Shown: positions 43,130 through 44,800 of the stretch, one piece after another
Layout of the letters: every line of letters starts with the position of its first letter
Position numbering within the stretch: the stretch's first letter is position 1
NCBI GenBank assembly: GCA_016716745.1
Contig: JADJVD010000006.1
Span: forward strand, 53,840-117,839
Origin: Hyphomicrobiales bacterium
GTDB lineage: Bacteria; Pseudomonadota; Alphaproteobacteria; Rhizobiales; Beijerinckiaceae
Length of the DNA: 64,000 nucleotides
Direction: 5' to 3'
The notes under the pieces: model-generated
Databases searched by the model: none
Seen by the model: the letters and a program-made list of their open reading frames with translations, nothing else
What the model was told of the DNA's origin: nothing
Made by a program: the position numbers and the translations under genes

Positions 43130-43235
43130 AACGCTAGGCGCGACCGCTCAGCGGCACGGCGGCAGGCCCGGCCGTCCGCACGGCCGCGGCTGCTGCGGCG
43201 GCGGCGCGGGACGCGGCGGCTGCGCCACCGGCCGC

Positions 43236-43370
43236 GGCGCCTGCATCGCCGGCGCGGGGCGCGGCGCCTGCATCACAGGCGCCGGACGCGGCGGTTGCAT
43301 CACCGGCGCGGGGCGAGGCGGCTGCATCACCGGCGCGGGACGCGGCGGCTGGACCACCGGCCGCGGCTGC
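43236..43370 (-). repeat. about five tandem 27-bp coding repeats (PRPAPVMQP units)
   Basis: GGCGCCTGCATCGCCGGCGCGGGGCGC and close variants, read directly. Boundaries are approximate. Confidence 0.8.
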
Positions 43371-43496
43371 TGGATGACCGGCCTCGGCTGCTGGACGACA
43401 GGGCGAGGTTGCTGAACCACCGGCCTCGGCTGTTGGATCACTGGGCGCGGTTGCTGGACGACGGGACGCGGCTGCTGGATGACCGGCCTCGGCTGC
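43371..43496 (-). repeat. six tandem 21-bp coding repeats (PRPV[I/V]QQ units)
   Basis: TGGATGACCGGCCTCGGCTGC at 43371 and again, identical, at 43476, with four diverged copies between them. Confidence 0.85.
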
Positions 43497-43599
43497 TGCT
43501 GGATCACCGGCGCAGGTTTCGGCTGCATCACGGGCGCAGGCTTCGGCTGGATGACCGGCGCGACCGGGGCAGGCTGTGTCGTCACGGGCGGCGTCGGCC

Positions 43600-44800
43600 G
43601 CACGCGGCCTCCGCTCGGCCCGGACATGCCGCCCATTCCACCCATTCCACCCATTCCACCCATGCCGGACGGGCCGCCCATGCCGGACGGCGGCTTCGGC
43701 AGTCCGCTCGCAGGCGCCGGCGACGCCGGCTTCGATCCGGACATGCCGCCCATCCCTGTCGGCGGCGCGGGCAGGCCGGGCTTGCCCTGCATCCCGCCCA
43801 TGCCGGCGGGCGGCGTCGGGAGGCCGGTCGGCGGGGCGGGCAGGCCGGGCTTGCCGCCCTGCATGCCGCCCATACCGGTCGGGGGCGTCGGCAGGCTGGG
43901 CTTGCCGCCCTGCATGCCGCCCATACCGCCCATGCCGCCTTGGCCGTGCATGCCTTGGCCCTGCATACCGCCCATGCCGGTCGGGGGCGTCGGCAGGCCG
44001 GTCGGCGGCGCGGGCAGGCCGGGCTTGCCCTGCATGCCGCCCATGCCGGTCGGCGGGGTCGGCAGGCCGGGCTTGCCGCCCTGCATCCCGCCCATGCCGC
44101 CCATGCCGCCTTGGCCCTGCATGCCTTGTCCCTGCATGCCGCCCATGCCGGTCGGCGGGGTAGGTAGGCCGGGCTTGCCCTGCATGCCGCCCATGCCGCT
44201 CATGCCGCCTTGGCCCTGCATGCCTTGTCCCTGCATGCCGCCCATGCCGGTCGGAGGCGTCGGCAGGCCGGGCTTGCCGCCCTGCATCCCGCCCATCCCG
44301 CCCATGCCGCCCATGCCGCCCATTCCGCCCATGCCGCCTTGGCCTTGCATGCCTTGCCCCCGCATGCCGCCCATGCCGGTCGGCGGGGTAGGGCAGGCCG
44401 GGCTTGCCGCCCTGCATCCCGCCCATGCCGCCCTGACCCTGCATGCCTTGACCCTGCATGCCTTGGCCCTGCATGCCTTGGCCCTGCATTCCGCCCATGC
44501 CGCCCATGCCGCCCATGCCGCCTTGGCACTGCATGCCCTGACCCTGCATGCCGCCCATGCCGGGCTGGCCGGGGCGCCCGCCCTGGCCCTGCATGCCGCC
44601 TTGGACGGGGAAGCCGCCCTGACCCTGCATGCCGCCTTGGACGGGGAAGCCGCCCTGACCCTGCATGCCGCCCTGACCGTGGAAGCCGCCCTGACCCTGC
44701 ATGCCGCCCTGACCGGGGAAGCCGCCCTGTCCCTGACCTTGATTGAAGCCGGGGCGTCCGCCCTGGCCCTGTCCGAATCCCGGACGTCCGCCCTGTCCCT
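43600..44800 (-). repeat. about 1.2 kb of imperfect variable-length coding repeats rich in Gly/Met/Gln
   Basis: Recurring CATGCCGCCCATGCC / CATGCCGGTCGG[C/G]GG blocks encode GKPGLPTPPTGMGGMQGQGMQGQGGMGGMGGMQG-type units and GGFPVQGGMQGQ units. Boundaries are approximate. Confidence 0.8.

Follow-up and report, generated by a model that had tools for sequence, protein, structure and literature searches.

Pseudo-orthocaspases of the YA/YS class have been described in Rhizobiales by Klemencic et al. 2019, with long C-termini in which no domain could be identified (PMC6426788). We have analyzed a gene for a protein of this kind in a stretch of 64,000 nucleotides, hereafter the window, from the metagenome-assembled genome (MAG) of a Hyphomicrobiales bacterium (assembly GCA_016716745.1, contig JADJVD010000006.1, positions 53,840 to 117,839). 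The gene is located on the minus strand at 43148-46211, ends in a TGA codon (43150-43148) and codes for 1020 amino acids once a single C is removed from the deposited sequence. Its last 550 residues (aa 471-1020, minus strand 43148-44801) form a tail of tandem repeats rich in Met, Gly and Gln and, further on, in Pro, Val and Gln. Similar compositions are known from other proteins, namely the (GGM)4M tails of GroEL, flexible and weakly hydrophobic segments that adopt polyproline-II structure in part and make contact with non-native clients (PMC11978752, PMC12571646), and abductin, a random-coil elastomer with the repeat GGFGGMGGGX and an unusually high Met content (PMC9999432). Our analysis indicates that the tail is a real and selected part of a member of the known family, with a frame break that is an artefact, and we propose that it may act as a tether or mesh in the cell envelope. 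To this statement as a whole we give a probability of about 0.5; the identity part, taken by itself, is very probable, and the tether or mesh mechanism is a tentative proposal with somewhat less than even odds.

Over the N-terminal 400 aa the window protein was 50-66% identical to more than 100 entries named 'caspase family protein' from Bradyrhizobium, Rhodopseudomonas, Rhodoplanes and Methylobacteriaceae. In total, more than 3000 homologs (E <= 1e-10), mostly of 700-825 aa, were found in Bradyrhizobium, Rhodopseudomonas, Rhodoplanes, Xanthobacteraceae and Methylobacteriaceae. The window protein has in common with the described Rhizobiales proteins a signal peptide, a p20-like fold without the His-Cys dyad, the lack of any other recognizable Pfam domain, a low-complexity C-terminus of several hundred residues, a terminal Cys pair and the order itself (Rhizobiales/Hyphomicrobiales). 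The differences affect the dyad and the tail. Among the 121 family members compared, the His position was occupied by Tyr in 111 and the Cys position nearly always by Ala, whereas in the window protein the His position is an Arg (FAGRG) and the Cys position an Ala (LDAARN). It represents an Arg/Ala variant of the described Tyr/Ala class. As for the tail, it has 550 aa against the usual 300-350 aa or so, Met/Gly/Gln and Pro/Val/Gln repeats in place of Pro/Ala/Gly-rich sequence, and 11.3% Met against 0.9%. Besides, the window protein lacks the PPPNNIIFANIHN motif of the Bradyrhizobium-type proteins.

Specifically, we have checked the tails of 93 homologs, taken past the Pro-rich linker. Their mean composition was 27.9% Pro, 21.3% Ala, 7.9% Gly and 5.3% Gln, with a mean of 0.9% Met, a maximum of 4.3% and not a single MxxM motif; such Pro/Ala-rich tails occur in Bradyrhizobium and Rhodopseudomonas. 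Of these 93 proteins, 75 carry a C-x(3-9)-C motif at the C-terminus (for example KRCPPGVSQC or NCGGPGRPPCPR). Other relatives have tails of other designs. The syntenic ortholog of Rhodoblastus sp. SSC7 (MAG, CP059255.1; L001 5905-8549), with UDG upstream and the same oxidoreductase downstream, has about 7 copies of the repeat PTSPPTPAVAPAPGAKP(P/S)AAGQTGLPN; this gene is also frame-broken, in a record that has ambiguous bases. A homolog with 48% identity from an uncultured alphaproteobacterium MAG (L003 5821-8073) has tail units that, as read, are rich in Gln, Arg and Glu (QQQRERALRERQNQEQQQ...), a third type with no relation to the others. The nearest database protein, 66% identical and from a Methylobacteriaceae MAG, ends early in the tail and is not Met-rich that far. 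The Met/Gly/Gln design was shared by one ortholog only, that of a sister species (L009) described below. The long low-complexity tail and its Cys-pair end are kept across the family, and the composition in between is free to change.

The initial annotation, made from the letters of the sequence, had known of no described family with this architecture. As a statement that there is none, this goes too far, given the Rhizobiales pseudo-orthocaspases (PMC6426788): the family and the long tails are known, and what is new, as far as our searches reach, is the Met/Gly/Gln tandem-repeat composition together with the size of the tail. A search with the tail only, against a set of 5.8 billion proteins, gave two matches, both to unrelated low-complexity proteins of the PVVQQ type. 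Similarly, phmmer with the Met-rich 262 aa against 1.84 billion representatives returned one irrelevant match to an RCC1-like repeat protein (E 4e-4). This absence is weak evidence, since even the product of the sister species gene is missing from the protein sets. Exact look-up of the open reading frame (ORF) as deposited, with four alternative starts, and of the +1 ORF found neither of them in the protein collection, in which four neighbouring genes of the window are present (MBK9082641, MBK9082643 and MBK9082644 as exact entries, and the solute-binding protein as a Logan entry); MBK9082640, of 261 aa, falls in the same cluster as the window solute-binding protein, and one number of the series, MBK9082642, is left over. 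Protein databases contain few repeat genes of this type, since contigs assembled from short reads stop at the repeats and the products at contig ends are not indexed. The short-read contigs of close relatives from several other metagenomes, L010 3927-5366 (Logan SRR36538054) and L011-L014, stop where the Gly/Gln repeats start, or earlier.

The architecture of the protein is the one that the initial annotation had claimed, a pseudo-caspase followed by a Pro-rich linker and a very long repeat tail. All of the repeat units quoted there were found on the minus strand between 43148 and 44801, with a degree of repetition far beyond chance. They include the GKPGLPTPPTGMGGMQGQGMQGQGGMGGMGGMQG units, GGFPVQGGMQGQ (inside a 36-bp unit with 5 repeats at 90% match), PRPV(I/V)QQ (period of 21 bp, 7.5 copies) and PRPAPVMQP (27 bp, 6.3 copies); Tandem Repeats Finder detected periods of 9, 15, 21, 27, 36, 99 and 171 bp with 75-95% match. 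The overall composition of the tail is 30.2% Gly, 19.5% Pro, 14.5% Gln and 11.3% Met. The latter figure corresponds to 62 residues and is well above the 2.47% obtained for 50 further proteins predicted in the window (binomial 1e-22). The dense MGGM and MxxM spacings mentioned in the annotation were confirmed by counting: there are 27 MGGM and 28 MxxM, about four times the 6.9 +/- 2.3 of shuffled tails, as well as 12 MxxMxxM motifs and 33 clusters of three Met at short spacing. There is no Asp or Glu in the tail, only 2 His, and 34 Lys plus Arg that give a charge of about +34.

Three parts can be distinguished along the tail, all on the minus strand. The first one (aa 471-607, 44391-44801) is in frame with the caspase domain and contains GQGGRPGF, four copies of GGF(P/H)xQGGMQGQ (36 bp), GMQGQ units (15 bp) and one (GGM)4 run; in the sub-segment measured, aa 498-607, Gly reaches 45.5%, Gln 23.6% and Met 14.5%. 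In the second part (aa 608-875, 43586-44389), which is in the +1 frame of the sequence as given, G(K)PGLP(T/A)PPTG units alternate with MGGM or GMQGQ blocks and there are runs of (GGM)6, (GGM)4 and, twice, (GGM)3; the composition is 37.7% Gly, 17.5% Pro and 15.3% Met. The third part (aa 876-1020, 43151-43585) is made of Pro/Arg/Val/Gln repeats, PRPV(I/V)QQ of 21 bp and PRPAPVMQ(P/A) of 27 bp, and finishes with the terminal Cys pair CGRPGLPPC (43154-43180).

The attachment of this tail to the pseudo-caspase, as proposed in the initial annotation, does not hold for the sequence as given, in which the two are in different frames, and holds after the correction of one base. The annotation had joined the two frames without remark and missed the break. 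In the deposited sequence the caspase ORF runs from 46211 to 43134 (1025 aa). Past GGKPGLP it reads YPADRHGRHAGARHARP... and ends in RHGRHAG; the three-frame translation gives, after ...MGGMQGGKPGLP, the Arg/His-rich YPADRHGRHAGARHARPRRHG.... The Met-rich reading (GKPGLPTPPTGMGGMQGQGM..., followed by PRPV(I/V)QQ and PRPAPVMQP) runs on in the +1 frame, within an ORF from 45076 to 43148 whose C-terminal end is ...PRPCGRPGLPPCR. The break is at a CCC run (44391-44393, minus strand) where two bases are expected, and the extra C shifts everything downstream to the +1 frame. Actually, the unit in which it is located, AAGCCCGGCCTGCC..ACCGG, has 30 nt at the break and 29 nt in the four other copies within the window.

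Four independent lines of evidence agree on which frame is translated. The GC content at third codon positions (GC3) was 0.91 in the caspase domain and, past the break, 0.89/0.87 in the +1 frame against 0.68/0.60 in the frame as deposited. Since the +1 frame has coding GC3, leads to the terminal Cys pair, corresponds to the single frame of the sister species and diverges from it mostly at third positions, the tail frame is the translated one and the join made by the annotation is justified. No further disruption appears in the +1 frame over the 1.24 kb past the break. The deposited frame past that point (43134-44390, minus strand) is out-of-frame Arg/His-rich nonsense, a pseudo-repeat of the type DRHGRHAGxRHARPRRHGR.... 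The high GC content and the repeats keep this frame free of stop codons over some 420 codons. We have also considered ORFs of the plus strand across the repeats (for example 43479-46274, 931 aa), which we take to be spurious by-products of the 74% GC; the minus-strand frames have coding GC3, homologs and third-position divergence.

The gene of the sister species (L009; GCA_039808725.1, JBDHTN010000120.1) is found in a syntenic region with the same GST, MBL-fold hydrolase and UDG neighbours. Exact look-ups of two window neighbours returned no contig; this contig and the L010-L014 contigs were then found through the cluster representative P0126. The DNA identity to the window is about 88-90%, and the proteins are 94.6% identical over the N-terminal 466 aa. 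In this species one uninterrupted frame of at least 908 aa goes from the caspase domain through GRPGLPTPPTGMGGM units to PRPVIQQ and PRPAPVMQ, up to the end of the contig. The composition of its tail is nearly the same (30.3% Gly, 19.9% Pro, 14.3% Gln and 10.0% Met, with 17 MGGM and no His). Between the two collinear tails, whole units have been inserted or deleted. In the DNA-level alignment the mismatches in the tail were distributed 28/26/98 over codon positions 1/2/3, and the Nei-Gojobori dN/dS was about 0.12 in the tail and 0.07 in the caspase plus tetratricopeptide repeat (TPR) part, values that, like the conservation per residue, are approximate because the repeat alignment is ambiguous. 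This pattern indicates that the tail truly codes for protein and that purifying selection acts on it. Besides, our comparisons indicate that the Met enrichment arose recently and in this lineage only, through a remodelling of the tail by tandem expansion, and that selection has afterwards kept it in at least two species. The units that expanded are GGFPxQGGMQGQ, GGM, GMQGQ, GKPGLPTPPTG, PRPV(I/V)QQ and PRPAPVMQP. Scans of genome and metagenome contigs with the N-terminal domain found no intermediate relative, with 66-95% identity, that would bracket the age of the expansion.

As to the frame break itself, its most likely origin is an indel error in the consensus of the MAG, the type of assembly deposited at NCBI from which the window, part of a 352-kb contig, comes, because two other genes in the same 64 kb are also frame-broken. 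One is ccoG (10354-11949, plus strand), which is split into an ORF at 10647-11234, matching positions 19-159 of TIGR02745, and another in a different frame at 11113-11949, matching positions 171-430; the split looks like the result of single-base assembly indels. There is a possible third piece of ccoG at 10354-10620. The other is a gene for a DctP-like TRAP solute-binding protein (38048-39150, minus strand), the second of a tandem pair, which is broken near 38640-38644: tblastn with the intact DctP paralog (36764-37918) recovered aa 48-188 in frame -3 and aa 187-384 in frame -1, and GTCGGCCGACCTG appears to carry an extra G.

If the frameshift were real, the gene would be a recent pseudogene or a truncated variant, with a 1025-aa product that has an out-of-frame end, or with nothing useful. 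The deposited sequence does have the extra C and the ORF is open to 43134 as it stands. Against this, the single-base breaks in at least two other conserved genes of the window, the undisrupted tail frame with its coding GC3 and the intact gene of the sister species make a real frameshift unlikely.

The rest of the protein gives the context in which the tail has to be understood. At its N-terminus there is a putative Sec-type signal peptide (aa 1-38, 46098-46211, minus strand as all the parts that follow) with a basic n-region, the hydrophobic segment AAILFVVVATSA and an ALA|E motif at which cleavage is predicted from the sequence. The AlphaFold2 (AF2) model has a helix at aa 2-32, and the homologs share this signal-peptide layout. 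A second ATG at 46199 may be the actual start, as it matches the MKKTSK start of the sister species. Together, the signal-peptide-like N-terminus and the terminal Cys pair suggest that the pseudo-caspase is exported. The signal peptide is followed by a caspase domain (Peptidase_C14, p20-like; aa 40-254, 45450-46094) recognized by PF00656 with 96.4 bits over a cut-off of 21.4 (E 2.7e-27, aa 40-254). The catalytic dyad has been lost: the catalytic His of MALT1 (YYAGHGY) aligns with the Arg of FVYFAGRGV, and the Cys position (LDAARN) was located by motif against the family. With both residues substituted, the protein is therefore a pseudo-enzyme. The AF2 model, calculated for aa 1-470 with an alignment of 26 sequences and of moderate confidence (mean pLDDT 66.7), predicts a caspase-hemoglobinase alpha/beta fold. 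In Foldseek its best match in the Protein Data Bank was the MALT1 paracaspase (E 8e-10, TMt 0.66), and then caspases 3, 6, 7 and 9.

Next to this domain is a TPR-like helical hairpin module (aa 288-367, 45111-45350), with AF2 helices of pLDDT 80-90 and weak TPR-type matches in NCBIfam (BamD/BcsC/YbgF, aa 299-375). It is the best conserved part of the family (YWSYLRRYPRGPHA...ARRRL), with invariant alignment columns. The caspase_w_EACC1 model of NCBIfam gave a sub-threshold match of 35 bits against a cut-off of 140. The module leads to the Pro-rich linker (aa 368-470, 44802-45110; PPPPPDEMVYFDD...PPPPPPPPQGGFGGMLPIPLPIPLP), predicted to be disordered with pLDDT below 50 at aa 393-470. Within the tail no domain was matched: over the 1020 aa Pfam gives Peptidase_C14 alone, and the sub-threshold NCBIfam matches are all outside of the tail.

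We propose that the tail would act through its bulk properties as a polymer and not through specific residues. According to the proline-plus-glycine rule, reportedly formulated by Rauscher and colleagues, a 2P+G of about 0.6 or more marks a hydrated, elastomer-like disordered regime. The tail can be placed in this regime because its 2P+G is 0.69. The chain would be disordered, similar to polyproline-II or to an elastomer, and strongly cationic. Its stickers would be regularly spaced, weakly hydrophobic Met residues, interchangeable with Phe and Leu, with Gly and Gln as spacer, and the stiff Pro-rich GKPGLPTPPTG and PRPVxQQ segments would interrupt this sticker-spacer chain. In the cell envelope such a chain would form a tether, long and flexible, or else a mesh that coheres weakly with itself. 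The pseudo-caspase/TPR part would be the binding module that the tail positions, and the Cys loop, capable of forming a disulfide, would be a conserved end-piece. If the approximately 60 thioethers bound soft metals or scavenged oxidants, this would then be a side property and not the function under selection. A Q/G-rich gel-forming tail or envelope tether had been the second suggestion of the initial annotation and is close to what the evidence favours.

Abductin offers a parallel. Again in this case there are Gly-rich units with one Phe and one Met each, as in the four copies of GGF(P/H)xQGGMQGQ, and a high Met content. However, abductin, a matrix protein of animals, has 116 aa, 58% Gly, about 1% Pro and no Gln blocks (PMC9999432), compared with 30% Gly, 19.5% Pro and 14.5% Gln in the strongly cationic tail of the window protein. 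The two are not homologous and the likeness is an analogy only.

Several points weigh against this interpretation. Composition is the sole source of the tether or mesh mechanism, and export is read from the N-terminus and the Cys pair. A Met enrichment present in two species under purifying selection would also fit a function specific to Met. The ambiguity of the repeat alignment makes the dN/dS and the conservation values approximate. There is also a small chance that the extra base at the CCC is a genuine mutation of this strain. Finally, comparison of the loci revealed no conserved operon partner that points to a cellular process.

The neighbours that we found within about 6 kb of the gene code for ApbC/Mrp, an NAD-binding oxidoreductase, a solute-binding protein of family 3, UDG, an MBL-fold hydrolase, a GST, a histidine kinase, a nuclease and an S10 peptidase. 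This is a conserved housekeeping context common to Rhodoblastus. Family members elsewhere are located between dnaE and rpsB-tsf, or beside DUF1800/DUF1501. Between the pseudo-caspase gene and the convergent gene of an NAD(P)-dependent oxidoreductase there is a hairpin with a 13-bp stem (43094-43123), terminator-like in both directions. A ccoNOQP-ccoGHI(S) cluster with a P-type ATPase is present in the window, 30 kb from the tail gene. In this region (6735-17933, plus strand) ccoNOQP-ccoGH is followed by a gene of 744 aa, whose place in the cluster led us to take it as ccoI (P-type ATPase). Pfam recognized a second E1-E2 ATPase gene at 16047-17933, where the GC content of the window is highest (0.74-0.77), and gave no match for an ORF of 387 aa at 14879-16042. 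A conserved four-gene set (26818-30912, plus strand), with a circularly permuted ATP-grasp protein, an Alpha-E domain protein, a transglutaminase-like protein and an ORF of 270 aa, is unrelated to the tail.

As an alternative function, the tail could be a flexible and hydrophobic brush of Gly and Met to which periplasmic clients, non-native or hydrophobic, would bind in the way of the (GGM)4M tails of GroEL, with the pseudo-caspase/TPR part as scaffold. The exact chaperonin motif is present, as one run of (GGM)6, two of (GGM)4 and two of (GGM)3, and the GroEL tails, which contact the clients, need both flexibility and hydrophobicity (PMC11978752). Besides, a dead protease fold is a plausible peptide-binding module (PMC6426788). 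The similarity to GroEL includes literal GGM runs of 3-6 units in a chain that is flexible and weakly hydrophobic in both cases. However, the GroEL tails have 13 residues, are cytoplasmic, sit within the folding cage and constitute the extreme C-terminus of Cpn60, whereas the Gly-Met sequence of the window is internal, extends over hundreds of residues mixed with Gln and Pro units, and belongs to a non-chaperonin that is probably exported. It is a compositional likeness without homology. The long GGM runs were not kept in the sister species, where the longest one has 3 units, the other members of the family have no Gly-Met sequence, and there is no chaperone context. We consider a chaperone-like brush unlikely.

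The initial annotation had preferred another function, a periplasmic Cu(I)/Ag(I) buffer. In such a buffer or sponge, MxxM and MxxMxxM thioether clusters would bind soft monovalent metals in the manner of Ctr1, CueO/PcoA or PcoE/SilE. The density of such motifs and three-Met clusters reported above, the probable export of the protein to the periplasm and a Met enrichment kept in the sister species despite the change in repeat number are in its favour. Moreover, CueO has copper sites made only of Met (Cu6 and Cu7), and multiple Met help to recruit Cu+ (PMC11494321). The Met-rich segments that bind Cu(I) (the inserts of CueO, PcoA and CopA, the Mets motifs of Ctr1, PcoE/SilE) resemble the tail in their dense MxxM and in the probable periplasmic location. 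In other respects they are different, as the tail is not part of a cuproenzyme or transporter, lacks His or Asp partners, the co-ligands typical of bacterial Met-rich copper motifs in the periplasm, and its Met is not conserved in the family. The annotation had set the conservation of Met content in orthologs as one of the tests that could refute its proposal, and past the sister species this conservation disappears, with the mean of 0.9% and the lack of any MxxM in the 93 homologs. Even in the sister species the MxxMxxM motifs decrease from 12 to 1. With 2 His, no acidic residues and a charge of about +34, the make-up of the tail is unlike that of PcoA/CopA/CopB/SilE-type motifs. No cop, cus, cue, pco or other metal gene was found within about 6 kb, in the housekeeping context shared with Rhodoblastus.

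The pattern of substitution is also relevant to the copper proposal. Met alternates with Phe in the 12-aa unit, and the sister species has Leu at positions where the window has Met or Phe. Since Met exchanges with Phe and Leu, a generic hydrophobic position fits better than a metal ligand. We detected no extra constraint on Met between the window and the sister species, with 88% of Met conserved against 93-97% of Gly, Pro and Gln in an alignment that the repeats make ambiguous. Neither the context nor the orthologs support metal buffering. Binding of Cu(I) by the tail is possible but unsupported, and as the selected function we regard it as improbable.

Going one step further from the tether or mesh, the tail could be the bacterial envelope counterpart of the Met-based low-complexity domains of eukaryotes, that is, a cohesive, elastomeric or gel-like periplasmic phase with Met and Phe as stickers in a Gly/Gln spacer. 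Its cohesion would be switched by the oxidation of Met (via MsrP) or by thioether cross-linking with Cu(I) or Ag(I). The purifying selection on the tail, its probable export, the lack of acidic residues and the regular spacing of the stickers are compatible with it. This reading derives from the composition, and we hold it to be quite improbable. If true, it would make the pseudo-caspase a stress-responsive scaffold for envelope material.

Oxidation could also be the function itself. The tail would then be a sacrificial sink in which exposed Met react with HOCl or H2O2 and MsrPQ reduces them again, as in MrpX, or Met oxidation would reversibly tune the cohesion. About 60 solvent-exposed Met in a disordered and probably periplasmic chain are consistent with such a role, and MrpX is a precedent: this protein of the periplasm contains 20% Met, becomes oxidised in the presence of hypochlorite and is then recycled by YedY (PMC4436054). 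Like MrpX, the window protein appears to be exported, Met-rich and probably unstructured. However, MrpX is a small protein in which 44% of the residues are charged, and its gene is transcribed together with yedYZ under SigF (PMC4436054); the window protein shares none of these features. The tail has no acidic residues, unlike MrpX, the wider family has no Met enrichment, and there is no msrP/Q or sigF/nrsF within about 6 kb. An oxidant sink seems to us very improbable. Lastly, as CCC-N sites are prone to +1 slippage and a slip from CCC to CCU would yield exactly the protein of the sister species, we considered that ribosomes might make a programmed +1 shift at CCC-U, or that the C run might be phase-variable, and rejected both as practically negligible: the junction is in frame in the sister species, as it is in the unit's four other copies within the window, there is no slow or stop codon after the site, and three C are too short for a contingency locus.

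The window contains at least three single-base frame breaks, and a gene caller would report the artefact of about 420 residues as protein, so proteins called from this MAG need care. The pseudo-orthocaspases of Rhizobiales comprise thousands of sequences. Tail and Cys pair have been kept in them while the composition turned over, from Pro/Ala to Thr/Pro/Ala, Gln/Arg/Glu and Gly/Gln/Met, which suggests that the tail works through its physical properties. If a role specific to its chemistry (copper, oxidant scavenging or redox-tuned cohesion) turned out to be true, the tail would represent a new kind of periplasmic low-complexity domain.

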